DNA of 64,000 bases from Planctomycetales bacterium (GCA_005239675.1 SBBO01000041.1:3187-67186), one strand, 5' to 3'; counted from the first letter of the stretch, positions 1 to 23,143 are shown. Notes: generated from the sequence alone by a model not told the origin. Numbers and translations are program-made.

Positions 1-2493
1 GGGCAGTGGTATCACATCGTAGGGACATGGGATGGGACCACCCAGCGTCTTTATAAAAATGGCGTGCAAATAGCCAGTCAAGTGCCGGGAGGCACACTTG
101 ATGCCATCAGCAACGAGAATATCTTTATTAGTTGGGCAGCTGTTGGTCAAGCAATGGATGGCCGCATCGACGAAGTTGCTGTTTACAACACGGCCCTTTC
201 TGCTGCTGAAATCACTACCCTCTATAACAGTGGGACAGGGGTGGAATCTGAACCTTACACCAAATCCCCCGCCACATTTGAGTCAGCCACTATCGATTTA
301 ACTTCCAATAGTCAGTTGGATGCCTTTTATTTTAACTCGACTGTAGCAAGTCAAACCAATGGGAGCGGCACAGAGATTCCTGCGGGGACCTTAGGTCTCG
401 TTGGGCTCTGGCGTTTCAACGATGCCAGTGGTCAAACAGCAGTTAGTGCCGCAGGTTCGAACAATGGAACACTGGGGGCCACCAGCGGGAGTGAGGCAAG
501 TGACCCTACTTGGACTACGGCTGCTAACACTAAGCTAGGTGCCTCAGGGCTTTCTTTTGATGGGGTAGATGATTATGTGAATGTAGGAGCCCCTCCAACC
601 ACTGTCCTGCGTAACTGGACAATGGAGGCATGGATCTATCCTAATAACTTGTCTCAACTTGGAACGGTGGTCAGTAATGGCTTTGAGGATGCTAACGGTG
701 GCGGCGGATATTCATTTGGTATAGGCGATGGTATTGGTGGCGCAGGGGCTAAATTGCAGGGTCGGCTTAATGGATGGATATGGCGCGATAGCGGATATAC
801 ATTTCCCGCAGCGAATCGGTGGTATCACGTCGTCATGATGTGCGACGTAGGTACTGTTAGGTACTATGTGAATGGCGAGCAGACCCCCACTACCGACCCC
901 AATTGTCCTATCTATGCCCCTACTACTCATTTACGGATTGGATCACAATCAGGAATACGATTTTTTAACGGCCGCATCGATGAAGTCGCGATTTATGACC
1001 GCGTCCTTTCCGTGGAGGAAATCAGATCCCATTACAATTCACACCGACTACAGATAGCGTCGTCGAATTGTAGTAACGGTGCAACCAATCCGCCCACGTG
1101 TGATACCGGCACCTGGAACTATGTTGGCCACGATGGATCAGCGAGCAGCTATTTCATCCAGCCAGCAGGATTATGGCATTTAAATGAGGCAACCAGCGGC
1201 AATGTCTCGACCGCTTCAGGGACGATTGTCGATGCCTCCGGCAATGGAAGCCCAGGCACCTTTGTTAATGCCAATGCCAGTGCCTCTCCTACAACGGCGT
1301 ATGAGACCAGTAAGCTCAATGGTGGGATCAAATTCGATGGGGTCGATGATTACGTAGATCTTGGAAATCCCGCCCATCTTCAGTTAAGGGTTGGGACATA
1401 TGAGGCATGGATAAAGACCAGTAATGCTGGGACCGGTGACCGAGGCATTGTTGTCAAACAGTCTGGCTTTGGTATTTATCTCAATGGCAATATATTCGGC
1501 GTCTATCCCGCTGGCAGCGGATTTTTATCAACAGGGGTGAATCTGGCGGATGGCCTGTGGCATCATGTCGCTGCCTCATTTCAGCATGGCGTTACTAACG
1601 GTACCGTTGTGTACATCGATGGGACACCGCGACTTACTACCACCTGGTCGACCTTTAATGAAACTTATGATCCTGTGTTCATTGGCAAGACCTACGGTGG
1701 TGGACGGGAATTTGCCGGCTCCATTGATGAGGTCGCCATTTATAATCGCGTGCTAACGCCAGAGGAGATCAAGGCACATTACAACGCTGGCACTGGCCGT
1801 GAGGTCGCCACGGGGTCGCTACGCATCAGCAAGCCCATTGGCTGGTGGCATTTCAATGAGTCCTCTGGCACCACGGCCGCGGAATCTAGCGGAAATGCTA
1901 ATACCGGCACACTGACCAATATGACCACCACTTCTCTTGCCGGTAACGGTGCTGGGACCAGTGGCTGGAATTCCGATAGCGCCAAACTTACTAATGCCCT
2001 TAAATTTGATGGGACCAATGATTTTGTCAGTATGGCCAACGTTCCAACCGCATTAACCGATAACTGGACACTGGAGGCATGGATTAATCCTGCTAATTTA
2101 TCTCAGATTAGTATGGCGGTAAGTAACGGTTCTGATGATGGTGTTACAGGTGACGGATACGCATTCGGGTTAGGCAATGGTGCTGGTAGCGCAGGCAACA
2201 AGTTGCAGGGTCTCCTTCCCGGTGTTGTATTTATTGATAGCGGATATACGTTTCCTACGGCAAATCAGTGGTACCATGTGGTCATGCTGCGAAGATCGGG
2301 GACGATACATTTCTACGTGAACGGTAAGAAGACTATTAATACCAGCACCAGTGCCCCCCTTGTCCCTACCCAGTTTCGTGTTGGGGCTCAGACAGGACTT
2401 AGATTTTTTAATGGTCTTATTGACGAAGTTGCCGTTTACAACAAAGCGCTCACCGATAGTGAGATCAGGGCGCGGTACAACTCTGGGATTGGG
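1..2493 (+). repeat. Four LamG-like coding modules (approx. 1-240 partial, 394-1040, 1168-1797, 1841-2493)
   Basis: Module ends recur at DNA and protein level: ggccgcatcgacgaagttgctgtttacaac (151), ggccgcatcgatgaagtcgcgatttatgac (970), ggctccattgatgaggtcgccatttataat (1716), ggtcttattgacgaagttgccgtttacaac (2411). Module starts are GLWRFND / GLWHLNE / GWWHFNE. Confidence 0.8.
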
Positions 2494-5400
2494 CGGGAAA
2501 ATATGTCTATTGTTGGGCCTGCCCTTGGTACGGGGGATACCCGCTACGTGCGCTACAAGGCCTATTTGGGAACAGCAGATAAACTCTACACCCCACAGTT
2601 GGATGATCTGGGGTTAGACTATTCCGCCAGCTATCCACCTTCAGCCGTATTGACGTCTTCTAAATTTGATGCGGGGGCAGGTAATATTTTTGTCAAGAAA
2701 TTACAATGGACTGAGGTCCTCAATGGTCAGGATGTCAAATTGCAACTGGCAACTGCTGCCAGCTCAGGAGGCCTCACAACTTTCTGTGGGCCACGGGATG
2801 CCACCACAGGATCATGCACAACTAGTACTTATTTCACTGATCCTGCAGGTACAGAACTAATCGATGATGTCCAGATACCAGGTCGATGGTTCCAATACAA
2901 GGCATTTTTGACCTCCAATGGTTCTGGTACACCGACTTTAGATGGTGTCCAGGTCATTTATGATACTGTAAGTTTTCAAATTACTGGAACGGGCAATGCG
3001 ACTGCAGGGACAGCGTATCCAATCACGGTCAGGGCTGTAGACACCTTAGCTGCCAGCGTCACTGGTTACGACGGTTCTAAAACATTGAGCTTCAGTGGGG
3101 CCAATAATAGCCCTGATGGCACAACGCCTAAGATCAGTATTGACAATAGCTGTGCCACTGCAGGTGATAATTATACATTTACCTCAGTGCCTATATTCTT
3201 TGCCTCTGGTCAATCCACTGTGTATCTATGCGCTTATAAGGCCGAGGCAGCTAGTATTAGCGCCACCGCTGGTGCCATTGTCACGTCAACCTCATTGGCA
3301 GTGACTGTTAATCCAGCCGCAATGATTGTGACGGTGGACCAAATCGTCGATCCCGTGGTTGCCGGCACACCATCAGATGTGCGGGTTACAGTAAAAGACG
3401 CCTTTGGCAATGCGTACACAGGCCTGGTGAGCTTTACCTCTAATGATTCTCAGGCGGTCCTTCCAGCGAATTATACCTTTATACAAGCGGATAATGGGAT
3501 CAAGGTATTCACCGGTGGGGTTACCATGAAGACCGCAGGGGAGAAGACCGTGACAGCTACTGCCGGGGCAGTCAGCGGGACCCAGAGCGCGATCACGGTC
3601 ACAGCGGCTACCGTTGCCAGTCTGATCGTAGACCAGATTGCTGATCCACTGGTTGTAGGCGTCTCATCGAATGTGCGGGTAAAGGCCGTCGACGCCTTTG
3701 GCAATACAGTCACCGGATACGTAGGAACGGTGAGATTTTCCTCTGATGATCCACAGGCAACCCTCCCATCGAACTACACCTTCCAGCCTGCTGATAATGG
3801 GATTAAGACATTCATCGGTTGGATTACCATGAAGACTGTAGGGGAGAGGTCTGTCACTGCCGCGGATACAATTGATGGGACGATTAAGGGGACCCAAAAT
3901 GCGATCACGGTCACTCCCGCCTCAGCTGCGAATCTGATATTAAATGCGCCAGCGGATATCACTGTCAGTACTGAGGCTATCTATACCGTGACCCGCAAGG
4001 ACCAGTTTGGCAATCCGTTGACCAGCGGGGCACAGACCGTGTATTTATCCTCGGATTCAACCGGTAACAAACAATTCCGAGCCACCCCTGGCGGTAGTGC
4101 AGTGACCTCTGTTACGATTGCCAATGGCCAGGGCGCCACAACATTTTTTTACTATGACGATAAAGCGGGGATATGGACCATAACGGCTTCTGATGCCACA
4201 CCGCCCAATGGATTAACAGGACTTGCTGACGCAACAGACGCCCTCGAGGTGCATGCGGTCTATGAGGCGCAGATTAATGCTGTGTACAACGCGTCGAATA
4301 ATTCTATCGACATCTCCTCGTGGTTGACCAGGAAAGGTATCTTCGCCAGCGAGATTACTAACGATCCCTCCGCAGTTATTAGCGTCAATATCTATAATTC
4401 TACCGGGACCCAACTGAACCCAACTGATCTGGGCACAGGGAAGACCGTCAATAGTCAAGGCATATTTAGCGGGGTATCCTATAATCCCGCAGGCGGCTTG
4501 GATCCTAGCCTTGCCTATATTATCAAGGTCACGATCACGTACAACAGCAAACCATACCCTGCAGTTATCCACTTTGTTCCGCCAAGTGTTTTTACCTATG
4601 AGGCAAAGATAGGGGTTGTGTATAACAGTACTCGGGATTCTATTATGGCCAATGCCTGGCTGGAACGTAGTGGTACCACCATCGCTGATCCTGGTGACCT
4701 GAACTTTAGAATACTCAACAGTACCGGCACAGCGCTCTTTACTCAGCCTTACGATGGTTATGATTCGCCAACAGATGTAATCTTCAGCAACCAATTGATT
4801 AATGGGGTTTATACTAACATTGAATACGATCCATCAGGAGGTTTAAGCGCAACCGAGATTTATACGGTGAAGGCTGATATCATATATCGTGGAAAGACTT
4901 TTAATGCAGTCGTCTCTTTTTCTAAGGGGGCATTGACTGCGCTGGCAACGGATATCGCCACACTTCAAGCAGGGCAGGCAACGCAAACAACCTCATTGGC
5001 AAGCACGATCTCTGGTCAGACAACAACCTTACAGAGCACTATCTCTGGCCAGACAACGACCTTGGCCAGCCAGATCGGGACCATTGGGACCAACGTGACT
5101 GCTTTGCCAACATCTGTTACGAGCGCCATTACAACCGCGGTCACCGCCAATATCAATACGCAATTGACCAAAGGTTCGCAGGCCGAACTCTTGACGCGGC
5201 CCATGAACGTAGCTGTAGGCGCAACAGTCCCCATTCGCTTCCGCACCGCACCTGGCCTTTCTCCTAAGATTACTGTGTATGACCCCAATGGCGTCACCCG
5301 GGTCAACGCCGGGCCGATGAGGGAAATCAGTAATATTGGCATTTATGAACACAAGCTCACCTTTAATCCTGCCTGGGGCTCAGGCGATTACACCGTGACT

Positions 5401-6282
5401 GTGACTGAAAGCACCCGCGGCTCAACCGACAGCCTTGTTATGAGCGCTGGGCAGGGAGGGCTTGATGAGATTTATTCGAAGATCGCTAGTCTAAGCACAG
5501 ACCAAACCTCTAGTACTGGGAGTTTTGACCAGATATTGAATAATGTCAAGCTCGCTCAGAGCAACACAACTGGAATTAAATCCGATATAACAAACTTATT
5601 GTCAAAATTGGGCAAGACAAGCGATAGCGCTAACGCCGCTACATTATTTGGTCGTGTCGCAGCCATTGATGCCCTCTCATTGCCGGGCGTAGGTGGTAAT
5701 AGAGATGAAAAAATTCTGGCAGGGATCAAAGAGATCAAAGACTATATGGACTCCCTGGACGCTAAACTGGGCATTCGTAGGGATAAAGCCACTAAGGCCA
5801 AAGATACCATATTGGGTCATCTAACAGAGATGGAGACACTAGAGAAGGGTTTCGATTCTGAGGCTATTAAGAAACTCAAGGCCAAGGCCACGGGCTTATC
5901 CAAGATGACCGAAGAGATCCGTTCTCAGCTGACCAGTGGCAGTATAGCGACCGTAACCGCTAAGCTGGCAACGTTGGGAGAAGAGATGAGTTCTCTAGAG
6001 AATGATTTAGACGTATTGCCAGGGGTAGTTGGTACAGCATCAGTTAATGAGGCCTTTGAAGAGGTGGAGAACGTTGCTAGTAGTGGCGGATTAGAGAAAT
6101 TGGTACCCTTTTTGAAAGAACTCAAAGAGGGTCGGGAGGCGCTTAATCCGGAGAATATAGGGCAGATGCGCAATACCATCGAGGAATTGAAATCTCTCAT
6201 GGCAGAGGTCCGGTTGCTCTTAGACCAAGAAGTCAATAAGCCTGTTATCCATGGCTGGCTCGAGGAGGGAATAGGGGAATAA
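1..6282 (+). CDS. Giant secreted/surface protein, 5'-truncated by the window edge (LamG x4, Ig-like x4, paired ~112-aa domains, helical C-terminal region)
   Basis: Frame 1 is open from nt 1 (GQWYHIVGTWDGTTQRLYKNG precedes the first Met of the ORF track). Four concanavalin/LamG-like modules each end in FxGxIDEVA[IV]YN..L[ST]..EI...YN[SA]G. Ig-like repeats carry V[KR]..DAFGN..TG and NYTF..ADNGIK.F. The last ~430 aa are Ser/Thr/Lys/Glu/Leu-rich and look helical. No C-terminal TM segment or recognisable anchor motif. Confidence 0.85.
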   Translation, partial: GQWYHIVGTWDGTTQRLYKNGVQIASQVPGGTLDAISNENIFISWAAVGQAMDGRIDEVAVYNTALSAAEITTLYNSGTGVESEPYTKSPATFESATIDLTSNSQLDAFYFNSTVASQTNGSGTEIPAGTLGLVGLWRFNDASGQTAVSAAGSNNGTLGATSGSEASDPTWTTAANTKLGASGLSFDGVDDYVNVGAPPTTVLRNWTMEAWIYPNNLSQLGTVVSNGFEDANGGGGYSFGIGDGIGGAGAKLQGRLNGWIWRDSGYTFPAANRWYHVVMMCDVGTVRYYVNGEQTPTTDPNCPIYAPTTHLRIGSQSGIRFFNGRIDEVAIYDRVLSVEEIRSHYNSHRLQIASSNCSNGATNPPTCDTGTWNYVGHDGSASSYFIQPAGLWHLNEATSGNVSTASGTIVDASGNGSPGTFVNANASASPTTAYETSKLNGGIKFDGVDDYVDLGNPAHLQLRVGTYEAWIKTSNAGTGDRGIVVKQSGFGIYLNGNIFGVYPAGSGFLSTGVNLADGLWHHVAASFQHGVTNGTVVYIDGTPRLTTTWSTFNETYDPVFIGKTYGGGREFAGSIDEVAIYNRVLTPEEIKAHYNAGTGREVATGSLRISKPIGWWHFNESSGTTAAESSGNANTGTLTNMTTTSLAGNGAGTSGWNSDSAKLTNALKFDGTNDFVSMANVPTALTDNWTLEAWINPANLSQISMAVSNGSDDGVTGDGYAFGLGNGAGSAGNKLQGLLPGVVFIDSGYTFPTANQWYHVVMLRRSGTIHFYVNGKKTINTSTSAPLVPTQFRVGAQTGLRFFNGLIDEVAVYNKALTDSEIRARYNSGIGRENMSIVGPALGTGDTRYVRYKAYLGTADKLYTPQLDDLGLDYSASYPPSAVLTSSKFDAGAGNIFVKKLQWTEVLNGQDVKLQLATAASSGGLTTFCGPRDATTGSCTTSTYFTDPAGTELIDDVQIPGRWFQYKAFLTSNGSGTPTLDGVQVIYDTVSFQITGTGNATAGTAYPITVRAVDTLAASVTGYDGSKTLSFSGANNSPDGTTPKISIDNSCATAGDNYTFTSVPIFFASGQSTVYLCAYKAEAASISATAGAIVTSTSLAVTVNPAAMIVTVDQIVDPVVAGTPSDVRVTVKDAFGNAYTGLVSFTSNDSQAVLPANYTFIQADNGIKVFTGGVTMKTAGEKTVTATAGAVSGTQSAITVTAATVASLIVDQIADPLVVGVSSNVRVKAVDAFGNTVTGYVGTVRFSSDDPQATLPSNYTFQPADNGIKTFIGWITMKTVGERSVTAADTIDGTIKGTQNAITVTPASAANLILNAPADITVSTEAIYTVTRKDQFGNPLTSGAQTVYLSSDSTGNKQFRATPGGSAVTSVTIANGQGATTFFYYDDKAGIWTITASDATPPNGLTGLADATDALEVHAVYEAQINAVYNASNNSIDISSWLTRKGIFASEITNDPSAVISVNIYNSTGTQLNPTDLGTGKTVNSQGIFSGVSYNPAGGLDPSLAYIIKVTITYNSKPYPAVIHFVPPSVFTYEAKIGVVYNSTRDSIMANAWLERSGTTIADPGDLNFRILNSTGTALFTQPYDGYDSPTDVIFSNQLINGVYTNIEYDPSGGLSATEIYTVKADIIYRGKTFNAVVSFSKGALTALATDIATLQAGQATQTTSLASTISGQTTTLQSTISGQTTTLASQIGTIGTNVTALPTSVTSAITTAVTANINTQLTKGSQAELLTRPMNVAVGATVPIRFRTAPGLSPKITVYDPNGVTRVNAGPMREISNIGIYEHKLTFNPAWGSGDYTVTVTESTRGSTDSLVMSAGQGGLDEIYSKIASLSTDQTSSTGSFDQILNNVKLAQSNTTGIKSDITNLLSKLGKTSDSANAATLFGRVAAIDALSLPGVGGNRDEKILAGIKEIKDYMDSLDAKLGIRRDKATKAKDTILGHLTEMETLEKGFDSEAIKKLKAKATGLSKMTEEIRSQLTSGSIATVTAKLATLGEEMSSLENDLDVLPGVVGTASVNEAFEEVENVASSGGLEKLVPFLKELKEGREALNPENIGQMRNTIEELKSLMAEVRLLLDQEVNKPVIHGWLEEGIGE
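3313..3920 (+). repeat. Tandem pair of ~100-aa Ig-like (invasin/Big-type) coding repeats
   Basis: 3313-3607 and 3608-3920 align along their length (DQIVDPVVAGTPSDVRVTVKDAFGNAYTG... vs DQIADPLVVGVSSNVRVKAVDAFGNTVTG...). More divergent copies flank them at about 2990-3310 and 3920-4215. Confidence 0.8.
4252..4925 (+). repeat. Two copies of an unassigned ~112-aa domain
   Basis: HAVYEAQINAVYNASNNSIDISSWLTRKG...YNPAGGLDPSLAYIIKVTITYNSKPYPAVIHF aligns with TYEAKIGVVYNSTRDSIMANAWLERSG...YDPSGGLSATEIYTVKADIIYRGKTFNAVVSF. Confidence 0.7.
5002..5067 (+). repeat. 2 x 33-nt in-frame tandem repeat (STISGQTTTL[QA])
   Basis: AGCAC[G/T]ATCTCTGG[T/C]CAGACAAC[A/G]ACCTT occurs at 5002 and again at 5035. Confidence 0.85.
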
Positions 6283-7345: not shown

Positions 7346-7370
7346 TATCCATCGCTAGTCGCGATGGATA
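7346..7370 (+). promoter_or_regulatory. Perfect 10-bp-stem palindrome abutting the Shine-Dalgarno sequence of the next gene; near-copy of the 7235 hairpin but without a U-tract
   Basis: TATCCATCGC tagtc GCGATGGATA is followed directly by AGGAGG (7371-7376) and ATG 7382. GTTATCCATCGCTAGTC is identical at 7233-7249 and 7344-7360. Confidence 0.6.
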
Positions 7371-7381
7371 AGGAGGCTATC

Positions 7382-8260
7382 ATGTTAAGATATGTATTGA
7401 TATTTGTTGCAGTATTATTTATTGCGCCTCTTGCCTGCGGGGAAGAGTCGCAAGACAATGTGGTCATTAAGATACGCGCGATCAATCCCTTGGAGGAAAA
7501 AGCCAGCATCACTATCCGTTACTCGCTTCCCATCGGATTAACATCAGAGGATATTCTGGCCAAATACATCAAGCGCGGCAATAAGCCTACCAAACGTCAG
7601 AATTTTAAAATTCGTCTCGATAAAGAAAAGAAGACTTATTTTGTCGATCAACCCATGACGCTTGCCCCGAAGGAAGTGGTGGTTTTAGAAATAGAGGTCA
7701 AGGACGTATGGGCTATCCCAGCGCAGAAGCTTGATGACCTTCAAGCGCAAACAGAAAATTTACTTAAAACTCCCATCGAGAGGGAATCGACCTCAGCGGA
7801 TTTCATGAATGATGGGTCAGCGCCAGATCCCATCGTTATAAAATTAAAAGAAGAAATATTAAGACAGTTAGAAAAGATTTCAGCAACGCAGGAGGCTAAT
7901 ACCATCGCCAAGGCGGGCGTTACGGCACATATCGATGCGTATCGCAAGAATGCCGAGACACTCAAACAGGTCCAGATGGATATCGCGATGCTGGAGAATA
8001 TATTAGGTGAAAAGGAAACGCTCAAGAAAGAGGAGCTGCTTGAGGATGCCCCGTTGTCGGAGCCGCCTAGCCTTCCAAAGATCCCTGTACAGTCAGAAGA
8101 ACAAGCGCAGCCCCCTCTAGAGGTAGGTCAAGATCAGCCTGTGCCATCTGCATCCATTGAGGGCGAGAATCGCGCGGTGCAACCCGCCGCTACTATCGAG
8201 CCGTTTTCTGTAAAACCAAGCATCGCAGATAAATTGAGAAGTTGGTTTAGGCGCAGATAA
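7382..8260 (+). CDS. Secreted protein: signal peptide, one copy of an unassigned beta-rich plus helical periplasmic module, Pro/Glu/Gln-rich tail
   Basis: AGGAGG lies 5 nt upstream of ATG 7382. The N-terminus MLRYVLIFVAVLFIAPLACG is signal-peptide-like. The module is paralogous to two modules in the next gene (LAPKE..V..[IV]E[IV].D[VI]W.I and HI.AY..N.ETLK). Confidence 0.7.
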   Translation: MLRYVLIFVAVLFIAPLACGEESQDNVVIKIRAINPLEEKASITIRYSLPIGLTSEDILAKYIKRGNKPTKRQNFKIRLDKEKKTYFVDQPMTLAPKEVVVLEIEVKDVWAIPAQKLDDLQAQTENLLKTPIERESTSADFMNDGSAPDPIVIKLKEEILRQLEKISATQEANTIAKAGVTAHIDAYRKNAETLKQVQMDIAMLENILGEKETLKKEELLEDAPLSEPPSLPKIPVQSEEQAQPPLEVGQDQPVPSASIEGENRAVQPAATIEPFSVKPSIADKLRSWFRRR

Positions 8261-8326: not shown

Positions 8327-10246
8327 ATGAATAATGAGTCTCCACGCATTCCCGCGCATTTCCATAAAATTCAATTTGTCTTAGCCGGGATAATTTTATT
8401 GTTCGTAACACCGCTTCATGCCAGTGTCAAGTTGAAAGTCTCCGCTTCTAATCCTTCACCGTTCCAGGAGCAGGTTGTCCCCGTTAAGTCTTATCTTCCC
8501 AAAGGTATCGGGCCGCAGGATATCATCAACGCCGGGGGCCTTACGATCGGTTACGACATAAGGAAGGGGCAGTATTATGTGTACAAAGAGGTTGTCTTGG
8601 CGCCTAAGGAAATGGCGGTCTATCAGGTGGAAATTAACGACATCTGGCTTATTAGCGAAGCAGATTTAGAGAAGCAGCGTGCCTATATTAATAAGCTGAC
8701 AGATCGTTTGAAGAATTCACAATACGCTAAAAGCGTCCAGAAGCTCATCGGAGAGATTGATGAGAGCATAACAATCATTATTAACCACCAGAATGAGAAT
8801 CTGATCGAGAAGGTATCTGCTGTTGATCACATCGCTGCCTATGAGTTGAACACGGAAACGCTCAAAAAGATTAAAGAAGACATTGACATCATAGAGAGCA
8901 TGGTTATGACACTTTCGAAGACAGGCGCGGTGGTCGGCGTTTCGCAGGACCAGGCGGCGCAAGCCTGTCTTGCGCAGGAGGCGATGCGATACGCGGACAT
9001 TAAAGGTATCGCGTTAGAGACACCACAGGACGTCAGGTTCACTATCGACGTCCAGAATTCATCGGATGTTGATACTCAGAATGTCCCTCTGCGGTATTAT
9101 CTGGCCCAAGAGGTTGGGGCCAATGATATCCTTGATTCTGCTGGCTTGAACGTAGGGTTTGATTTTGAAAAAGCGGTGCATTATCTTTTTCAAGACAGCA
9201 TCCTCTTGGGACCTGGCGAAAAAAAGATCTTCGATATTACTTTGCGCAACAAATGGGTCATCGATAAACTTTATTTGCTTACGCTTAAAGTAAATAGCGA
9301 TAATGTGGCCCTTGCCTTAGGCAGTCGCGCTGGTTTTGAAAAGTTTCGTCAGAGAAATGATGAAATCCAGTCTCAGCTAGATCAATTGCTGAAGGCAAAG
9401 AGCTTCACTGAACTGACTGAAGAGCATATCCGTACTTTTCGCAATAATCATCAGCAATTGAAAAATATTGAGCAAGAAATTGCTAAATTAGAGAATATGG
9501 TGATCACCTCCAATGGCGCAGGCGTTGTCACGGCCCAAGCGAGAGAGAGGTTGTGTGAAGAAAAGCGGGACCAGAAGATTATCGCGGCCGCAAAGGGTCC
9601 TGAGATCATTAAAGAATTTAAGATGGCCGCTGGAACAATCTTCAAGGGAAAATCCCTTAAGACGACCACCACCTGGGAGCTGATCATCGGTATTATCATT
9701 TTCTTAGGGTTCTTGAGTTCGGCGTTCTATTATATGCAAATCAGAGAACAGAAGGTCGTTATGTTGGATCCTTTGACCGGTGCTTTTTCGAGGGCGTATA
9801 TATTGGAACGATTCCGGGAAGAGCTCAGGATTTCCCAGAATACTGGCACGAAGTGTTCGCTTTTGGTGATGGATATTGATAAGTTCAAGTCTATTAACGA
9901 CACTTATGGGCATGCGGTGGGCGATACAATCCTTAAGGAATTTGTTATCACTATCCGTAAAGGCCTGCGCGCAACTGACCTTGTCGGCAGGTACGGCGGG
10001 GACGAATTTTTAATCATTTTGCCAACCAGCAATAAAGAGCGGGCTCATAAGATCGGTGAAGGTATCGCCAAGATTGTCCAAAAGAGTGTCATCCAAATTG
10101 AGAAACAAACATTTAAGATCACGACCAGTATTGGGACAGCGACCTATCCTGATGACAGCAAGGTCCCCGAGGACGTATTTTTGAAGGCGGATGGCGCCAT
10201 GTACCAGACTAAACGCCGGGGCGGCAATGGAGTGTCAACGGCATAA
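8327..10246 (+). CDS. Membrane diguanylate cyclase: two periplasmic modules, one TM segment, GGDEF domain
   Basis: N-terminal hydrophobic segment, TM WELIIGIIIFLGFLSSAFYYM, and a C-terminal GGDEF domain with an intact GGDEF (GRYGGDEFLIILP). An RxxD I-site (RATD) lies five residues upstream of it. Confidence 0.85.
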   Translation: MNNESPRIPAHFHKIQFVLAGIILLFVTPLHASVKLKVSASNPSPFQEQVVPVKSYLPKGIGPQDIINAGGLTIGYDIRKGQYYVYKEVVLAPKEMAVYQVEINDIWLISEADLEKQRAYINKLTDRLKNSQYAKSVQKLIGEIDESITIIINHQNENLIEKVSAVDHIAAYELNTETLKKIKEDIDIIESMVMTLSKTGAVVGVSQDQAAQACLAQEAMRYADIKGIALETPQDVRFTIDVQNSSDVDTQNVPLRYYLAQEVGANDILDSAGLNVGFDFEKAVHYLFQDSILLGPGEKKIFDITLRNKWVIDKLYLLTLKVNSDNVALALGSRAGFEKFRQRNDEIQSQLDQLLKAKSFTELTEEHIRTFRNNHQQLKNIEQEIAKLENMVITSNGAGVVTAQARERLCEEKRDQKIIAAAKGPEIIKEFKMAAGTIFKGKSLKTTTTWELIIGIIIFLGFLSSAFYYMQIREQKVVMLDPLTGAFSRAYILERFREELRISQNTGTKCSLLVMDIDKFKSINDTYGHAVGDTILKEFVITIRKGLRATDLVGRYGGDEFLIILPTSNKERAHKIGEGIAKIVQKSVIQIEKQTFKITTSIGTATYPDDSKVPEDVFLKADGAMYQTKRRGGNGVSTA

Positions 10247-10280: not shown

Positions 10281-10508
10281 ATGTTCAACGTCATTCTCCT
10301 TGACCAGACACACGTGATTTTCGATGGGATGGCCAAGAGCGTCATCCTGCCGGGTGATGGGGGGGAATTTGAGGTCTTGGATTTTCATAAACCGATTATT
10401 ACTTCTTTGAGACGCGGGGAGATCGTCATCCACGGGATGGGGTTTCCCATATCCCGGGGTATTATGCGTTTTCACAAGGATCAGATGATTGTGTTAGTGG
10501 AATTGTAA
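10281..10508 (+). CDS. atpC: F-type ATPase epsilon-like subunit, beta-sandwich domain only (75 aa)
   Basis: VILLDQTHVIFDGMAKSVILPGDGGEFEVLDFHKPIITSLRRGEIVI matches the epsilon N-terminal pattern (..F.G.v..v.lPg.eGe.g.L..H.P.it.L..G.v.i). The protein ends where the C-terminal helical hairpin would begin. Confidence 0.7.
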   Translation: MFNVILLDQTHVIFDGMAKSVILPGDGGEFEVLDFHKPIITSLRRGEIVIHGMGFPISRGIMRFHKDQMIVLVEL

Positions 10509-10538: not shown

Positions 10539-10757
10539 ATGGAAAATTTTGTCATCTTATTTATTATATTCTTGGTTGTCATAGGCCCATTGGCCGTCAT
10601 TGCGGTCCTCGGTTTCGCTACGATACGCGCCCTGGGGCGTAATCCTTCGGCCTCTTCTAAGATCTTGCCAACGATGATTATAAATCTTGTCTACACGGCG
10701 GGGGTCGCCATTATTGGGCTTTTGGTATTATTTCACATATTCGGGACGTCTTCATAG
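10539..10757 (+). CDS. F-type ATPase c-subunit-like hairpin protein (72 aa) without an ion-binding carboxylate
   Basis: Two hydrophobic helices are joined by a polar loop, LGRNPSA (compare ARQPE of c subunits). An ungapped alignment to the bacterial c-subunit pattern, written from memory, places Ala where the essential Glu/Asp sits. The only acidic residue in the protein is E2. Confidence 0.6.
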   Translation: MENFVILFIIFLVVIGPLAVIAVLGFATIRALGRNPSASSKILPTMIINLVYTAGVAIIGLLVLFHIFGTSS

Positions 10758-10774
10758 ATGTGAAAGGAAAATCT

Positions 10775-11503
10775 ATGTCTATCATTTTATTGGTCGTTAT
10801 CATCTTGGGAGCTTTTATTGCCTTGGTATTTACTTTTCAACGAGTTATGATCTCTACGGCCTCGCAGGAGACGAAGCGCTTGCAAGACCTTAATCTGGAA
10901 AACACAAAGAAGGCCGTCGCCTTGCAGGAAAAGATTGAGGAGGCCGACAGACAATATAAAGAAAAGCTCGCCCAGGCCCAGGAGGAAATTCGGCAATTAA
11001 AGGAAAAAGCCATTCAGGAGACAGGGGCTGTGCGCGCTGACATGCTGGCCAAGGCCAAGGAAGAACGAGGACACTTGATTGACCAGGCCCTTGACGCCCG
11101 CGAGAAATTACGTGAAGAGATAGAAAGCAGTCTTTTAGAAAAAAGTCTCGAGCTGGCGCGTAGGATCATTGCTGAGATCTTGCATTCCCCGCACCAACGA
11201 TTGGTTTATGACGGCTTAATGGAGGATGTGCTGCAGGAAATGGAGGTGATGGATATTGGGATCTTAAGGGGGAGCGAGGTTCGATCATGTCATGTGCAGA
11301 CTTCTCACCCACTCGATGTCCGCCAGAAGGAACGGTTGACTAAGATTTTGTCAGAGAAGACTGGTCAAAAGATTTTCATTGAAGAGACTATCGATAAAAA
11401 GGTTATCACCGGGATTATTGTCCACATCGGTAGTTTTATGATTGATGGTAGCCTGATGACAAAATTTAAAAAAGCGGGAGAGCGTATTCGGCATGGGGGA
11501 TAA
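10775..11503 (+). CDS. F-type ATPase b-like stalk fused to a delta/OSCP-like C-terminal domain
   Basis: N-terminal TM IILLVVIILGAFIALVF, then ~110 aa of charged coiled coil. The C-terminus ITGIIVHIGSFMIDGSLMTKFKKAGERI resembles the delta C-terminal motif (GG..v..Gd.viDgSv...L..l). AAAGGA lies 6 nt upstream of ATG 10775; a GTG at 10760 is an alternative start. Confidence 0.6.
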   Translation: MSIILLVVIILGAFIALVFTFQRVMISTASQETKRLQDLNLENTKKAVALQEKIEEADRQYKEKLAQAQEEIRQLKEKAIQETGAVRADMLAKAKEERGHLIDQALDAREKLREEIESSLLEKSLELARRIIAEILHSPHQRLVYDGLMEDVLQEMEVMDIGILRGSEVRSCHVQTSHPLDVRQKERLTKILSEKTGQKIFIEETIDKKVITGIIVHIGSFMIDGSLMTKFKKAGERIRHGG

Positions 11504-11539: not shown

Positions 11540-13023
11540 ATGCCAACCATCCATATTCAAGAAGTCGGTCGGGTCAAGGAAACTAAAAAAAGCATCGCCA
11601 AGATCACGGGGTTGACCCAATGCATGATCGGTCAGCTCATGCGTTTGAGCGATCATGCCCGAGGAATCGTTGTTGGATTCTCACGGGGTGAGGCGGTGGT
11701 CTTTCTCTTGGGCAGAATTGAAGAAGTGCGCATCGGGGATTTGGCCTATAGCCTTATGGAGCCGTTTACTATTCCGGTGGGGGAAGGGTTTTTGGGCCGG
11801 GTTGTCAATGCCCTGGCCGAGCCGATCGATGGGAAAGGATTCATTGGTGAGGTGGGGCATGGAGAATATCCTGTTTTTCGCAAGGCCCCGGGTGTTCTGC
11901 AGCGCGTTCCGATCACCAGGACCTTTGAAACGGGAGTTTTCATCGTTGATGCCACGATTCCCATCGGGAAGGGGCAGCGGGAACTAATTATTGGCGACCG
12001 GATGACGGGAAAGACCAGCATCTGCATGGATGCCCTGTTGAACCAGAAAGGCAAGGGGGTGGTGTGCATTTACTGCTGTGTGGGACGCACCTATACCTCA
12101 TTATTAAAAGCTATTGAGACCTTTAAAGAGACAGGTGCCTTGGGATATACGATCGTTGTCGCTGCGCATGCAGCTAGTCCCAGCGGTGAGCAATATCTGG
12201 TTCCGTATACCGCCTGCGCCCTGGGGGAATATTTTATGGATCACGGCCGCGACGTTTTTGTCGTATTTGACGATCTGACCAAACATGCCTGGGTCTATCG
12301 ACAGCTGTCCTTGCTATTAGAACGTCCGCCCGGGCGCGACGCGTATCCTGGAGATATTTTCTATCTGCATTCCCAGTTGATGGAGCGCGCCGGACAATAC
12401 AGTCCGGAGTTTGGTGGCGGCTCAATGACTTTCTTTCCCATTGTGGACACATTGCATGGTGACGTGACTGGTTATATCCCCTCCAATCTTATTTCTATGA
12501 CCGATGGGCAGATCTATATGAATACGTCGTTATTTAATAGCGGTTTTAGGCCGGCTATCGACTTGGGGCTTTCAGTATCTAGGATCGGCAATAAGGTCCA
12601 ATCACCGGTGATGCGTGAATTGACCGCCATGCTACGCCTGGAATATATGCGTTATAATGAACTGCTCAAGATCGCCCGGTTTAGAACGAATGTCTCTGGC
12701 CAGACAGATCAACGATTGCGTGAGGGTGAGGTCCTGACACAGTTGTTCCTGCAGATCAATGGCGAGCCGCACCCTGTCGCCAGGCAGATAATTTTTCTTT
12801 ATGCATTACGTCGCAAGATTTTACTCACCATGCCCGCAACCGAGATTGATTATTTCAAAAAGAACATTTATGATTTTGCTCAGAGAAAATATCCTGATGT
12901 GATAGACGAGCTAGTCGGGAAGATGGAATGGACGCCGCAATTGCGTCGTCGACTGGACGAGTGTTTCTTTGAGTTCTTTATGGAAAGAGGAGTGGTCATT
13001 AAAAGCCTGGAGTCGTCGCGTTA

Positions 13024-13024
<1 letters not shown>
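11540..13024 (+). CDS. atpA: F1 ATPase alpha-like subunit
   Basis: GDRMTGKTSI (P-loop), DDLTKHAWVYRQLSLLLERPPGRDAYPGDIFYLHSQLMERAG, GGGSMTFFPIVDT..GDVTGYIPSNLISMTDGQIY and LSVSRIG (Arg finger position). Confidence 0.9.
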
Positions 13025-15320
<2,296 letters not shown>

Positions 15321-15382: not shown

Positions 15383-17080
15383 ATGGCGTTACGCATAGGG
15401 GATATTTTGATCGAAAAAGGACTGATCACGCGGGATCAGTTGGAGAGGGCCGTACAGGAACATCAAAAGACCAAAGAGTTCCTTGGTCAGACCTTCATTC
15501 GCATGGGGTTTGTTACTGAAGAAAAACTTCTTAGAGTCCTGGCTGAGCAGCAGGGCATCGCTTTTCTTAGTTTAAGAGATGTCAAGTTTGACGATGCCGT
15601 CATTAAGAAAATACCGGTAAAATTTTCTTGGCATTATAAGATCATGCCGATTCGATGGCATGATAACGTCTTGACCGTTGCGACATCGAATCCTTTCGAC
15701 AAGTGGTTCATCGATGATTTAGAAACAAATTTGGGTTACCGGGTGGAGATGGTATTGGCATTATCTTCGGATATTATGAAGACCATCCAGAAATATTACG
15801 GTGTCGGTGCTGACACCATTGAACGCATTCTCGCCGAAACCCCCCACGAGGAGAAGGCCGCGGAGGTGGGGGTCAAGGAAAAAGTCGAGGATCTGGAAAA
15901 GGTCTCTGATGCCGCCTCGGTCGTTAAATTGGTTAACCAGATCCTTCAGCAGGCCATCCGTGACCGAGCGACCGACATCCACTTCGAGCATTTCCGCGGC
16001 AATCTGGCCCTTCGTTATCGTATTGATGGGATTTTGTATGATGCACAGGTCTCTGAGAATATGCGGTATCTTTATTCGGCCATTATCTCGCGCATTAAGG
16101 TCATGGCGAATATGGATATTGTGGAGCGCCGCGTTCCCCAGGACGGCCGGGCTAAAGTCAAAATAGGCGATAAAGAATATGAACTGCGCGTTTCGATTCT
16201 ACCCACTTTACACGGTGAGAATATCGCCATTCGCATCCTGCCGACCTTGATGCTTTTTAACATGAGTGATCTTGGGATGCACGATAAAGAATTGCAGGTC
16301 CTGCAGCGCGTCCTGCAAAAACCACACGGTATCATATTCGTGACCGGCCCCACCGGCAGCGGCAAGACGACAACCTTGTACACGTGCCTGAGCCAGGTGA
16401 ACACCCGCGAACGCAAAATCATTACAATCGAAGATCCCGTTGAGTATGAATTAAAGGGGGTCTCGCAGATTCAGGTCAATCCCAAAATAAGCCTTACCTT
16501 TGCCAGCGTCTTAAGAAGTATCTTGCGCCATGATCCTGACATCATTATGGTGGGGGAGGTTCGAGATTTTGAGACAGCGAGTATTACTATCCAGACTGCT
16601 CTCACTGGACATCTGGTATTCTCAACGATACACACGAATAACGCCGCCAGCGGGGCAACACGCCTGATCGATATGGGTATTGATCCGTTTCTTATTACCT
16701 CATCTGTGGAGATGTTTATTGCGCAGCGACTGGTGCGTCGGATTTGCCCCGATTGCAAGGAAGAATCCAGAATCGATGGCGACAAAATTGGCCTGAAGGA
16801 TATCCCCCAAGGGATGGATATCACTAGGCCAATCTTTCGCGGCAAGGGTTGCCCTACCTGCAACCATACCGGCTATAAAGGCAGGACCGGCATTTACGAA
16901 CTTTTGGTGATGAACGAAAAAATTCGGGACTTAATTCTTCATAAAGAGTCAGCGGACAAGGTTCAGCTTAAGGCCATTGAGACAGGGATGAATCCTATGG
17001 TGCTCGATGGATGGGAAAAAGTTTTTGCTGGTATGACAACACCTGAAGAGGTGCATAGGGTAACGCAGGTGGAGGAGTAA
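15383..17080 (+). CDS. gspE: GspE/PilB/MshE-family secretion ATPase with N-terminal MshEN-like domain and C-terminal tetracysteine motif
   Basis: GPTGSGKTTT Walker A; Asp and His boxes (ITIEDPVEY, GHLVFSTIHTNNA); CPDC...CPTCNHTGYKGRTGIYE. The N-terminus is RIGDILIEKGLITRDQLERAV / LGQTFIRMGFVTEEKLLRVLAEQ. Confidence 0.9.
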   Translation: MALRIGDILIEKGLITRDQLERAVQEHQKTKEFLGQTFIRMGFVTEEKLLRVLAEQQGIAFLSLRDVKFDDAVIKKIPVKFSWHYKIMPIRWHDNVLTVATSNPFDKWFIDDLETNLGYRVEMVLALSSDIMKTIQKYYGVGADTIERILAETPHEEKAAEVGVKEKVEDLEKVSDAASVVKLVNQILQQAIRDRATDIHFEHFRGNLALRYRIDGILYDAQVSENMRYLYSAIISRIKVMANMDIVERRVPQDGRAKVKIGDKEYELRVSILPTLHGENIAIRILPTLMLFNMSDLGMHDKELQVLQRVLQKPHGIIFVTGPTGSGKTTTLYTCLSQVNTRERKIITIEDPVEYELKGVSQIQVNPKISLTFASVLRSILRHDPDIIMVGEVRDFETASITIQTALTGHLVFSTIHTNNAASGATRLIDMGIDPFLITSSVEMFIAQRLVRRICPDCKEESRIDGDKIGLKDIPQGMDITRPIFRGKGCPTCNHTGYKGRTGIYELLVMNEKIRDLILHKESADKVQLKAIETGMNPMVLDGWEKVFAGMTTPEEVHRVTQVEE

Positions 17081-17092
17081 TTTAAAGTAGAT

Positions 17093-18370
17093 ATGCCCAC
17101 TTTTGTTTATAAGGCCAAGCGTGGTCCAGATCATCAGGAGACTGGGGAAGTCGTTGCCCTCCATCAGGACGATGCGGTCATCAAATTAGAAGCCTTAGGA
17201 TTGAGTCCTGTTAGTATTGTTGAAAAAGAGACCGTCGTTGGTGGATCCAGGACTGTCCAGAAAGTGGCCGGTGCCTCCGTGGGGGGGCTAGATTCGGTCC
17301 CTCCAGGATCTGTGTCTTATAGTGGGCTGATTAAAGTAAGGACACGCGACATTGATAGTTTTACTTGGCAATTGGCGACCCTAGTTAAGGCTAGTGTCCC
17401 CATGCTGCGCTCATTGGCCTTAATCTCCCAGCAAACCGAGAGCAGGGCCCTTAAGACGGTCGTTGATGATCTGCATCATCAGATCAAAAATGGTAAGACG
17501 CTTTCTGATGGGATGCGTCGATACCCCCAGCTATTTAATAATCTCTATTTGAGTATGATCAAATCCGGTGAGCATAGCGGCGCCCTACAGGAGGTCTTGT
17601 ATCGCATCGCCCAGTATCGCGAGAAGGAGCAGGCGGTCCTGCGTAAGATCCAGGCAGCCTTGGCCTATCCGGCCGTGATGATTGTGGTTGGCATCGCGAC
17701 GGTTTTTATTATGTTGACGGTCTTTATGCCCAAGTTTATTGGTATTTTTGCTACGATGAAGAAGGCCCTGCCCGTACCGACCCGTGTCTTGATTGGGATC
17801 AGCAATTTTTTAGTACATCATTGGTTCTGGTTTCTCATGGCCTTTCTCTTTGTCATGATCATTTTTGGTCGGGTCCGATCTTCGAGTCACAAGAAATTTA
17901 TCTTTGATTTGATTAAACTGCATATTCCATTCATCAACACGTTCGTGCGTAATGCCGAGATCGCCAAATTCGCTAGGACTTTAGGGTTGCTGTTGAAAAG
18001 CGGTCTGTCAGTCCACGATAGTCTTTTGTTGGCGACCGACACCCTTGACAACGACGCCCTACGTACTCAGCTAAGAGGCGCTGGTCAGGACATCGTTCAG
18101 CGGGGGGCAACACTCTCTTCAAGTCTTACTAAACTCAAGGCATTCCCTCCTTTTGCCGTCAACATGATTACGATTGGTGAAGAATCTGGAAGGCTCGATG
18201 AGTCGCTAGGCAGTATTGCCGGTGTCTACGAGAGAGAAGTAGAACAAGCGATTGGCGTTTTGACATCATTATTGGAGCCTATGCTTATTCTGGTGATTGG
18301 GGGGGTTATCGGATTTATCGTGTTTGCCTTGCTGTTACCGATATTTGACATAGGGACCATGGCGAGATAA
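17093..18370 (+). CDS. gspF: GspF/PilC-family inner-membrane platform protein
   Basis: Size is 425 aa, with a duplicated T2SSF-type architecture (two cytoplasmic helical domains, each followed by TM segments). It lies immediately after gspE. Confidence 0.85.
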   Translation: MPTFVYKAKRGPDHQETGEVVALHQDDAVIKLEALGLSPVSIVEKETVVGGSRTVQKVAGASVGGLDSVPPGSVSYSGLIKVRTRDIDSFTWQLATLVKASVPMLRSLALISQQTESRALKTVVDDLHHQIKNGKTLSDGMRRYPQLFNNLYLSMIKSGEHSGALQEVLYRIAQYREKEQAVLRKIQAALAYPAVMIVVGIATVFIMLTVFMPKFIGIFATMKKALPVPTRVLIGISNFLVHHWFWFLMAFLFVMIIFGRVRSSSHKKFIFDLIKLHIPFINTFVRNAEIAKFARTLGLLLKSGLSVHDSLLLATDTLDNDALRTQLRGAGQDIVQRGATLSSSLTKLKAFPPFAVNMITIGEESGRLDESLGSIAGVYEREVEQAIGVLTSLLEPMLILVIGGVIGFIVFALLLPIFDIGTMAR

Positions 18371-18408
18371 AAATTGATTATCTAAAAGGGTGATAAAGGA
18401 GATATACC

Positions 18409-18819
18409 ATGAAGAAAGGATTTACGCTCATTGAGCTCATGATCGTTGTTATTATCATTGCTGCGTTAGCGGCGATGGTCGTCCCGCGACTGGGGTCGCG
18501 TTCTGAACAGGCCAAGGTGGCAGTTGCAGAGGCAGACATCAATGCGAACATTAGTCTGGCCCTTAAGCTCTACAAGTTGGATAACGGCCGCTATCCAACG
18601 ACCTCTCAAGGGCTCAAGGCCCTTCTTGAAAGGCCCACCGCGAGCCCAATGCCAACGAACTGGAACGGCCCGTATCTTGAGAAAGAACCCTTGGATCCAT
18701 GGAACAATGCCTATCAATATAAGAACCCAGGCGCCCAGAATAAGGACAATTATGATCTGTATTCGATGGGAACCGATGGCACTGAAGGAACAGAAGATGA
18801 TATTAAGAACTGGCAATAG
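18409..18819 (+). CDS. gspG: Major pseudopilin, GspG type
   Basis: Prepilin signal MKKG|FTLIELMIVV with E+5, and the GspG hallmark DPWNNAYQYKNPG...YDLYSMGTDGTEGTEDDIKNW. AAGGAG lies upstream of the ATG. Confidence 0.9.
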   Translation: MKKGFTLIELMIVVIIIAALAAMVVPRLGSRSEQAKVAVAEADINANISLALKLYKLDNGRYPTTSQGLKALLERPTASPMPTNWNGPYLEKEPLDPWNNAYQYKNPGAQNKDNYDLYSMGTDGTEGTEDDIKNWQ

Positions 18820-18837
18820 CACAAGACATCACAGTAA

Positions 18838-18893
18838 GGTCTTCGGTCTTGGGTCTTGGGTCTACAGTCTAAGATCTTCGGTCTATGGTCTGA
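18838..18893 (+). repeat. Eight tandem heptanucleotide repeats (consensus GGTCTTN)
   Basis: GGTCTTC GGTCTTG GGTCTTG GGTCTAC AGTCTAA GATCTTC GGTCTAT GGTCTGA, with an exact 7-nt period starting at 18838. Confidence 0.9.
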
Positions 18894-19267
18894 ATAAAGG
18901 GGTCACCTTTTTTGAGATTCTTCTTACTGTCGTCGTTCTTTCTGTGGGCATGGTGGGCGTATTGCGGGTATATGCCGCATCTTTAAGTATCTTGGAAGTT
19001 GTGGGCGATACTATAAATAGCCTAGTATTGACCCAGGAGAAGATGGCAGATAGCGAACAGACGGCCCTAGAGGAGGGTGGGATCTCAATAGGAACTTCGA
19101 GCGGCCAGTTTAACAAAAGATTGGGGGATTATATCTGGGAGTCTAACGCTACGGCTTCAGCCATCGCAGGGCTTGATGCATTGACATTCACCGTGTATCG
19201 TGCGGGTAGTTCTAGAAGATTTCAGTTGGCGACTTATATCGAAGATAAGAATGATGAATTACCGTAA
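18890..19267 (+). CDS. Minor pseudopilin (GspI-like); start codon unresolved
   Basis: (L/M)NKG|VTFFEILLTVVVLSVGMVGVL is a class-III signal-like N-terminus with E+5. No in-frame ATG/GTG/TTG lies between the gspG stop and this motif. CTG 18890 sits where the Met of a 4-residue leader is expected. Confidence 0.5.
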   Translation: MNKGVTFFEILLTVVVLSVGMVGVLRVYAASLSILEVVGDTINSLVLTQEKMADSEQTALEEGGISIGTSSGQFNKRLGDYIWESNATASAIAGLDALTFTVYRAGSSRRFQLATYIEDKNDELP

Positions 19268-19898: not shown

Positions 19899-19899
19899 G

Positions 19900-20919: not shown

Positions 20920-20990
20920 TAGTTTTATTCTCGTAGAAGAAATTTTAAAAAGTCTTTGCATGGACATAGAATTGAGATGATGATAAGGGC

Positions 20991-22469: not shown

Positions 22470-22490
22470 TGTATCTTGTAAAAAAATGAT

Positions 22491-23033: not shown

Positions 23034-23143
23034 CAAAAATTTAACAAAAATTTTCAATAAGTAATTGTGTGCCTATTCATAGTATGTTATAGTAAGAATT
23101 AATTATATCGTCAGCAATATAAGCTATTGAAATAATAGAAGCC

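Follow-up and report, generated by a model that had tools for sequence, protein, structure and literature searches.

A c-subunit homologue with alanine at the ion-binding position, encoded in an F-type ATPase cluster that has no subunit a gene at its locus and adjoins a pilus/secretion module

To our knowledge, the coupling of rotation to ion flow is defined in every studied F-, V- or A-type ATPase by the carboxylate of the c subunit together with subunit a. The canonical F-type c subunit (PF00137; structures 9ITJ and 9ITT) has a membrane acid, a glycine-rich helix 1, an acidic residue in its loop (ARQPE or GRNPE) and a partner in subunit a. A 'non-respiratory' or 'symbiotic' F-type ATPase has been described in all classes of Omnitrophota, where its genes adjoin T4aP clusters (Seymour et al. 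2023, PMC10066038). This description was based on the phylogeny of alpha and beta, and the enzyme was likened to the Type 2/3 ATPases of Mycoplasma; the terms 'c-subunit', 'subunit c', 'a-subunit', 'proton' and 'rotor' do not occur in the main text of that survey. The Omnitrophota locus was defined by divergent alpha and beta genes situated ≤10 kb from a T4aP cluster and near giant ORFs. The same arrangement is present in the window, the whole 64,000-nucleotide stretch of DNA analysed here, and the window locus is almost certainly of the same type. A 2026 preprint covering 176 complete Omnitrophota genomes detected alpha and beta in 125 of them, described an 'incomplete F1F0 chemiosmotic apparatus' and found V/A-type subunits in 70 to 99% of class Gorgyraeia outside Pluralincolimonadales.

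A literature search for F-type ATPases that lack subunit a and are associated with T2SS or T4P, or for F1-like ATPases of the PVC group, found the Omnitrophota survey alone. No report was found in this search of a spread of the locus into Kiritimatiellia, Lentisphaerota or Verrucomicrobiota, of an a-less composition in which c is retained, or of an optional carboxylate. The Omnitrophota locus type is already known (2023); the features of the c subunit, the wider spread, the missing subunit a and the variable carboxylate are shown in the present analysis.

The c-like protein and its gene cluster

Six intact ATPase ORFs form a tight cluster on one strand of the window in the order epsilon, c, b/delta fusion, alpha, gamma and beta (all features given by coordinates in this report are on the plus strand). 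The epsilon subunit (10281 to 10508; 75 aa) consists of the N-terminal beta-sandwich only, as indicated by a match to positions 2 to 78 of the 80 in PF02823 (E = 7e-11), and the C-terminal helical domain is missing. The b/delta fusion (10760 to 11503) has an N-terminal TM helix, a coiled coil and the C-terminal part only of OSCP/delta (PF00213, E = 1e-12, profile positions 102 to 168 of 172; the match to PF00430 was weak), and the ATG at 10775 is possibly its true start. The F1 alpha subunit (11540 to 13024) scored 509.9 bits against TIGR00962 (cutoff, 484), with residues 4 to 479 aligning to model positions 22 to 497, such that about 20 N-terminal residues of canonical alpha are missing. The F1 gamma subunit (13024 to 13908) is divergent (PF00231, E = 1.8e-21), while the F1 beta subunit (13917 to 15320) scored 554.7 bits against TIGR01039 (cutoff, 462.9). 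Translations of alpha and beta contained the P-loops, including the Walker A motif of alpha, as well as GERxRE, the catalytic Glu and Arg, the Walker B Asp of beta and the Arg finger of alpha. Judged by these motifs and by the family scores, an alpha3beta3 head with gamma and epsilon would be catalytically competent. A full peripheral stalk is not encoded, there being a single b/delta fusion with a shortened OSCP region and an alpha that begins at model position 22. No gap for an extra gene is present around c, with epsilon ending at 10508, c starting at 10539 and b/delta starting at 10760.

Upstream of the cluster, a giant surface-type protein with Laminin_G_3 repeats (64 to 6282; 2072 aa) is a conserved partner, whose counterparts in relatives range from 5977 to 8446 aa. 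A 298-aa protein (7364 to 8260) shares homology with the repeats at the N-terminus of the GGDEF protein and is kept in the Omnitrophota-type loci; its hydrophobic N-terminal segment is possibly a signal peptide. The GGDEF protein itself, a membrane diguanylate cyclase with two N-terminal repeats (8327 to 10246), is a conserved neighbour upstream of the ATPase genes. Downstream, beta ends at 15320 and is followed from 15383 by a GspE/PilB-type ATPase (15383 to 17080) that carries MshEN, a c-di-GMP-binding domain. Next in order are the GspF/PilC platform protein (17093 to 18370), the GspG major pseudopilin with minor pseudopilins and GspK (18409 to 20919), and a PilM-PilN fusion with PilO/GspM (20991 to 23033). 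The fixed location of the ATPase genes between the GGDEF cyclase and the MshEN-bearing GspE points to a role in a pilus or in secretion, and the ATPase/pilus module is possibly under c-di-GMP control.

The c-like ORF (10539 to 10757) runs from ATG to TAG and has 72 codons, the translation being MENFVILFIIFLVVIGPLAVIAVLGFATIRALGRNPSASSKILPTMIINLVYTAGVAIIGLLVLFHIFGTSS, in which E2 is the only Asp or Glu among 72 residues. In a phmmer search of solved structures, the top match was 9itj_H, the c subunit of Chloroflexus aurantiacus (E = 1.6e-5), in an alignment that set the window 'lvytagvai' opposite 'IAFTEALAI' and GRNPSA opposite GRNPEI. By this register, codon 54 (GCG, Ala; 10698 to 10700) falls on the ion-binding Glu, and the cytoplasmic loop G33-R-N-P-S-A38 (10635 to 10652) is the counterpart of ARQPE. 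A protein database search returned 44 homologues at E ≤ 0.01, the top match (P0001) being the window protein itself, and the profile built from these 44 aligned with 9itj (E = 1.7e-6) and with chloroplast c subunits in an identical register. PF00137 (ATP-synt_C) matched the window protein weakly (E = 0.005; 17.5 bits as compared with a gathering score of 24), and 39 of the 44 homologues had a precomputed match to this family. The AlphaFold2 monomer model, made with the homologue alignment as input, was a two-helix hairpin (residues 2 to 34 and 36 to 68; pLDDT, 90.6). The top 50 Foldseek matches of this model in the PDB were all c-ring subunits of rotary ATPases, the best having a TM-score of 0.76 and 31% identity. 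Hence, the 72-aa protein is a genuine c-subunit homologue. A plain hydrophobic hairpin unrelated to c subunits was ruled out by the profile and fold evidence and by the position in the operon; weak phmmer matches to a GDP-mannose transporter, cytochrome bd and geopilin were hydrophobic noise.

Two hallmarks of the F-type c subunit are missing from this protein, namely the Asp or Glu of helix 2, in place of which there is Ala54, and the GxGxGxG(xG) motif of helix 1. The helix-1 stretch from G16 to G25 (GPLAVIAVLG; 10584 to 10613) is glycine-poor, with two glycines in the helix-1 span. Across the window family, 0 to 4 glycines (mostly 1 to 3) were counted in a 15-residue helix-1 span, as compared with mostly 3 to 7 in canonical c subunits with a GRNPE loop; the nearest canonical relatives of the family have GPGIGIGLIG in helix 1 and GRNPE in the loop. 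No compensating membrane carboxylate was found in the window c protein, the single acidic residue being at position 2. On its residues, the protein is predicted to be incapable of binding ions in the canonical manner. The sequence-only reading had identified a c-type hairpin with an ARQPE-like loop, an Ala in the carboxylate column, E2 as the sole acidic residue and a first helix devoid of GxGxGxG, and each of these points was confirmed by the alignments, the translation and the structural model.

That reading had also noted a missing subunit a, and the searches extended this observation. In the 64-kb window, no subunit a was detected, and the cluster itself leaves no space for such a gene; three or more TM helices were predicted for just two ORFs of the window, GspF and a UbiA prenyltransferase. 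PF00119 was absent from all 85 loci used for the detailed locus comparison (1.09 Mb in total) when a hydropathy scan was followed by Pfam searches of the multi-TM ORFs, a procedure that covered the window and locus flanks of up to 8 to 10 kb (shorter at contig ends) and whose hydropathy prefilter may overlook a very atypical subunit a. Thirteen ORFs with four or more TM helices were present in these loci. Seven were at the GspF position, and the other six were assigned by Pfam to TauE, MotA/ExbB and DUF7544 (two ORFs) or, for two, to no family. The F-type cluster described here and its counterparts at 84 related loci are, therefore, without a subunit a gene at the locus.

Residue 54 in related loci

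Where sources were named among the 44 homologues, they were Omnitrophica/Omnitrophota or Verrucomicrobia. When one genome was scanned for each GTDB species, a c relative was detected in 213 species, and the best 80 of these 213 loci were labelled as Omnitrophota, Kiritimatiellia, Lentisphaerota/Victivallales, Verrucomicrobiota or 'Planctomycet-' MAGs. Synteny was highly conserved over the 85 loci. The gene order in Omnitrophota is that of the window: giant protein, 298-aa protein, GGDEF, epsilon, c, b/delta, alpha, gamma, beta, GspE, GspF and GspG. In Kiritimatiellia and Lentisphaerota, the order is GGDEF, alpha, alpha', epsilon, c, b/delta, gamma, beta, GspE, GspF and GspG. Most loci have a single c gene.

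Residue 54 was Glu in 77 of the 85 loci, Met in four, Gln in two and Ala in two, so that all of the replacements were uncharged. In the alignment of the 44 homologues, Glu occupied this position in 36 proteins (LVFAEAVAII), the window had YTAG and a divergent subclade had GAA or GTA. The five nearest relatives (L005 to L009) all have Glu54. At codons 52 to 55, the window has TAC ACG GCG GGG and these five relatives have TTC GCG GAG GCG, so that each of four adjoining codons differs by one in-frame, non-synonymous point substitution. An identical c protein sequence was recorded from NCBI and from an independent Logan assembly, making an assembly error unlikely; the agreement of two independent assemblies and the in-frame nature of the four point substitutions ruled out a frameshift or assembly artefact at site 54.

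In order to place the losses, column 54 was mapped by parsimony onto an NJ tree of the beta subunits of 70 loci. The tips without Glu were scattered over the tree (the window, L004, L040, L057, L076 and the pair L074 plus L080). Fitch parsimony required six changes at column 54, which ranked 16th most variable of 68 columns. Nineteen columns had no change over the 70 loci, including G16, P17, A22, G25, A31 to A38, K41, L50 and F65. The GRNPSA loop was invariant in the 44 homologues and, likewise, had zero parsimony steps over the 70 loci. From these alignments and the tree, Glu54 would be the ancestral state of the family, with a loss in the window lineage by GAG to GCG, and Glu54 was lost independently at least six times, to Ala, Gln or Met. 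A wider comparison made with representatives of clusters at 50% identity showed that the Asp or Glu was missing from the site in 13 of 50 sequences with a non-acidic loop as compared with 2 of 69 with a GRNPE/D loop (Fisher p = 4e-4); the latter two sequences are glycine-poor, like the window family.

These distributions went against two further points of the sequence-only reading. The missing carboxylate had been linked to the missing subunit a, and its absence is not characteristic of the a-less system, Glu54 being present in 77 of 85 loci with the same gene context. Close orthologues with Glu or Asp at this position in the same context had been named as a refuting result, and this result was obtained, since L007, L008 and L009, among the nearest relatives, carry Glu54. 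The further suggestion that such orthologues would indicate a recent inactivating mutation does not seem to hold in its simple form, given the six or more losses, the purifying selection on the genes concerned and an operon that is otherwise intact.

Evidence of selection came from comparisons of c genes without Glu54. The two Met54 genes of L074 and L080 differed by a pN of 0.056 and a pS of 0.76 (saturated); dN/dS was 0.03 for L076 (Met54) versus L070 and about 0.03 for both L040 and L057 (Gln54). Outside site 54, the c proteins of E-less loci other than the window were nearly identical to those of E-bearing neighbours, and no new membrane acid was seen in these lineages. The E-less c genes are under strong purifying selection.

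The window c gene was the most altered of the E-less variants. Comparisons with L007 and L009 gave a dN/dS of 0.11 to 0.15, while pairs of E-bearing genes had values of 0.04 to 0.05, two- to threefold lower. The p-distance of the window c protein to outgroups was 0.337, with its sisters at 0.154 to 0.234, and a relative-rate count against L007 gave a ratio of 17:2 (p = 0.0007); alpha, beta, gamma, GspE and GspF of the window were merely 1.0 to 1.2 times faster. Three changes (S18L, A45T and F52Y) were unique to the window and affected positions that were otherwise invariant over the 70 loci, and A53T and A55G were located near the site. Judged by helix depth, S18, A45 and F52 plausibly surround residue 54. 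All 17 family-invariant residues were kept in the window c protein.

One explanation for these changes is degeneration confined to this lineage, such that the family as a whole needs Glu54 and the E54A change and its flanking substitutions disable a declining module in the window. The presence of Glu54 in all of the nearest relatives, the four consecutive non-synonymous changes at the site, the specific acceleration of c with its raised dN/dS and the alteration of S18, A45 and F52 in the window alone would all be expected on this basis, and the faster evolution and higher dN/dS are also compatible with a partial loss of function. However, the ATPase and pilus genes of the window are all intact and have kept their catalytic motifs, the c protein has retained every family-invariant residue at a dN/dS that is still only 0.11 to 0.15, and at least five other lineages have lost Glu54 with hardly any change in the remainder of c, which is still under strong constraint. 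Degeneration is, for these reasons, considered unlikely, and the window c is read as a case of remodelling of an obsolete binding pocket under continued overall constraint.

A proposed motor

The reading that we favour, with a probability of somewhat over one-half (roughly 0.55), takes this protein to be the c subunit in a derived, a-less F-type ATPase that is a conserved part of a T4P/T2SS-like module in Omnitrophota and the PVC group, and its ring to be a rotor or anchor that does not translocate ions. An alpha3beta3 head with intact catalytic motifs would hydrolyse ATP and turn gamma-epsilon, which would dock on a ring of c hairpins by means of the invariant GRNPSA loop, and the b/delta fusion with its single TM helix would serve as the stator. 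With subunit a absent, an ion path would also be absent, and the ring would serve in the membrane as a rotor or an anchor and not to carry ions. The invariance of the loop is consistent with docking of gamma-epsilon, and formation of a ring without the glycine motif is assumed. Since the most conserved loop is the one that contacts gamma and epsilon in canonical enzymes, and since the F1 residues are intact and a b/delta stator is encoded, an ATP-hydrolysing rotary motor appears to be the likeliest product of these genes. The repeated loss of Glu54 in the absence of subunit a suggests that such a motor would be independent of ion pumping. Ring formation, rotation, a lack of ion transport and coupling to the pilus or secretion apparatus are, in each case, what we infer.

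The favoured reading also requires an account of Glu54 where it is present. The ancestral Glu54 may have been permanently protonated and lipid-facing, a residue useful in most lineages and not essential. Without subunit a, neutral replacements of a protonated and lipid-facing Glu54 would be tolerated, and Gln and Met are probably close to protonated Glu in size and shape. In the window lineage, Glu54 would have been replaced by Ala with concurrent remodelling of the pocket (S18L, A45T, F52Y, A53T and A55G). The idea that a ring of such subunits is unable to bind ions, in keeping with the missing subunit a, can thus be retained in the sense that a dispensable residue is plausible but not in the sense of a defining absence. 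That about 90% of species, over a very deep divergence, have retained Glu54 indicates selection for this residue in most lineages, for which a purely passive ring gives no explanation. The Glu54 that has been kept may aid assembly of the ring, contact another partner or work with a subunit a encoded elsewhere.

The last of these possibilities, taken alone, would make the enzyme a normal ion-translocating ATPase whose subunit a is encoded elsewhere in the genome, for example one that also serves the product of a canonical atp operon; in that case, the functional ion site would be Glu54, and variants without it would be non-functional or would use a different site. The location of Glu54 on the canonical carboxylate column and its presence in 77 of 85 loci are as this explanation predicts. 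Against it, the search of 85 loci from four phyla found no gene for subunit a even though c and b are in the operon, the stator is reduced (delta has no N-terminal domain and alpha no N-terminus), and repeated loss of Glu under purifying selection is unlike the behaviour of an essential ion site. An entry in a supplementary table of PMC10066038, which lists K02111, K02112 and V-type subunits and none of K02108 to K02110, gives only a hint of a genome-wide absence of subunit a. An ion-translocating enzyme of the normal kind is, on balance, quite improbable. A mixed ring, in which the A54 protein is combined with a Glu-bearing c paralogue from elsewhere so that some ion sites remain, as in hybrid rotor rings, is highly improbable: a second c paralogue with a GRHPSA loop does occur beside the first in L008 (with Glu) and L009 (with Gly), and fused double-c proteins exist (P0045 and P0046), but there is no space for a second c gene between epsilon and b/delta, no further c-like ORF was detected in the window and most loci have one c gene.

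If the c protein is part of a derived ATPase with a non-translocating ring, as favoured here, then a more specific proposal may be made, which we advance as doubtful. ATP-driven torque might be transmitted through a carboxylate-optional c ring of the inner membrane to the T4P/T2SS-like apparatus, and the whole might represent a new class of surface machine that is powered by a rotary ATPase and is under c-di-GMP control through GGDEF and MshEN. Such torque could be used for rotation or assembly of the pilus or for export or deployment of the adjoining giant adhesin.

A set of F1, c and b/delta genes without subunit a is conserved across several phyla, and within it the loop facing gamma-epsilon is better conserved than the 'essential' Glu. 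If the complex is active, it would amount to a natural experiment on a c ring that does not carry ions, and it may represent the recruitment of a rotary ATPase to a pilus or secretion machine. The existence of natural E, Q, M and A variants, and of relatives within lineages with cultured members (Victivallales and Kiritimatiellia), makes the question testable. For annotation, alpha and beta genes of this type should not be tallied as a chemiosmotic ATP synthase.

Comparison with known systems

The window protein resembles the canonical F-type c subunit in its hairpin, in the R-N-P polar loop and in the location of its gene among F1 and b genes, and most members of the window family share the Glu at the same helix-2 position. 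It differs in having Ala54, a Ser in the loop and no partner a, and the glycine-poor helix 1 is a difference that extends throughout the family.

The F1-like X0 ATPases of Mycoplasma (Types 2 and 3) are similar in that alpha, beta, gamma and epsilon are derived from F1, the enzyme is non-chemiosmotic and there is a tie to a surface machine (gliding; MIB-MIP). In the Mycoplasma clusters, which are described as mycoplasma-specific, homologues of c and b are lacking, and the other genes code for a 12-TM protein, a large protein with two TM helices and a small protein of the cytoplasm (PMC12994834). As these clusters are without c and b, the resemblance to the window is functional rather than a matter of membership. 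Membership was rejected for the window, in which c and b/delta are present and the 12-TM protein is absent; scores of its alpha and beta for the Mycoplasma families MMOB1660/1670 and MSC_0618/0619 were, moreover, far below the cutoffs (409.8 versus 600, 394.2 versus 850, 299.9 versus 520 and 390.8 versus 570).

The N-ATPases are likewise encoded by a second, divergent F-type operon and have a long b subunit that ends in a delta-like C-terminus, to which the window has a weak match (TIGR03321, E = 3.9e-8). In N-ATPases, subunit a is retained, AtpQ and AtpR are present and the Na+ site of the c subunit is complete. Assignment to this group was rejected on scores (494 versus a cutoff of 752 for TIGR03305, 480 versus 750.5 for TIGR03324 and 33 versus 224.7 for TIGR03321) and on gene content, the N-ATPase operon being atpDCQRBEFAG and that of the window being epsilon, c, b/delta, alpha, gamma and beta with no a, AtpQ or AtpR.

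Hairpins without a carboxylate do occur in working rotors, namely in the 16-kDa proteolipids of V-type enzymes and in c1 of Acetobacterium woodii (PDB 4BEM ring). Those rings keep many ion sites and a subunit a, whereas in the window the sole c gene of the operon encodes no site. In the FliI-FliJ-FliH complex of flagella and the T3SS, an F1-related ATPase, a gamma-like stalk and a b/delta-like tether serve a secretion machine, with no subunit a and no ion translocation by the ATPase. FliI is a homohexamer without a c ring, whereas the window locus encodes a c subunit and proteins with much better scores for alpha and beta than for FliI or SctN.

Residues possibly marking the former ion pocket, and additional c subunits

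In the c subunit of the window, the loss of the canonical ion-binding carboxylate (E54A) was accompanied by S18L, A45T and F52Y (codons at 10590-10592, 10671-10673 and 10692-10694, respectively). These three substitutions were found in the window alone, the positions being otherwise invariant across 70 loci, and may be marks of the former ion pocket.

Some Omnitrophota loci contained a second c paralogue, flanked by epsilon and the main c gene, with a GRHPSA loop and a GPLFVIT helix 1. The paralogue of one locus (L008:4235-4450) retained the Glu (LALAEAAGIG), while that of another (L009:7123-7338) had a Gly at the carboxylate site (LALAGASGIG), suggestive of mixed rings and of one more carboxylate loss. 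Separately, two 50%-identity cluster representatives (P0045 and P0046; 138-140 aa) were c hairpins of the same family fused in tandem as doubles, each half having a Glu and an ARNPY/F loop.

Upstream genes, c-di-GMP and the pilus side

The ATPase genes are flanked on one side by a GGDEF cyclase (8327-10246) and on the other by a GspE with an MshEN domain (15383-17080), an arrangement which suggests that the whole module may be under c-di-GMP control. The N-terminal region of the GGDEF cyclase, ahead of its predicted transmembrane helix, contained two tandem repeats homologous to a 298-aa protein encoded at 7364-8260 (BLASTP E values of 4e-17 and 7e-07). No Pfam family was found for this common domain, which accompanies the ATPase-pilus module in Omnitrophota. 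A giant Laminin_G_3-rich protein (64-6282; 2072 aa) also lies upstream of the module in several Omnitrophota-type loci, amounting to approximately half of those with a flank long enough to cover this position, including relatives of 8446 and 5977 aa (L001:1-6253 and L004:1-9754); some of the Kiritimatiellia/Lentisphaerota loci had weaker matches to this protein in their upstream region.

Annotation of the pilus/T2SS genes at 15383-25529 (up to 25.5 kb) revealed no secretin gene, the ORF annotation of the window reaching ∼39 kb. A MotA/ExbB-family proton-channel protein was encoded a short way downstream of GspF in one locus without Glu54 (L057:8384-9418; Gln54), the only occurrence observed. 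Menaquinone-type genes located ∼20 kb downstream (36502-39388; a MenB-like enoyl-CoA hydratase, a UbiA/MenA prenyltransferase and MenC) are unrelated to the c-subunit finding.

Composition of the F1 head and stator

Kiritimatiellia, Lentisphaerota and Verrucomicrobiota loci (L011-L084) had two alpha genes, alpha and alpha' (e.g., L012:4839-7716), both relocated 5′ of epsilon and encoding proteins with ∼45 to 55% identity to the window alpha. Such a duplication would imply an F1 head with two kinds of noncatalytic subunit in these loci. The regulatory and stator parts of the window ATPase were jointly reduced: epsilon (10281-10508) lacked the C-terminal helices, delta (10760-11503) consisted of the C-terminal domain only, fused to b, and alpha (11540-13024) was missing ∼20 N-terminal residues, normally the delta-binding part of this subunit.
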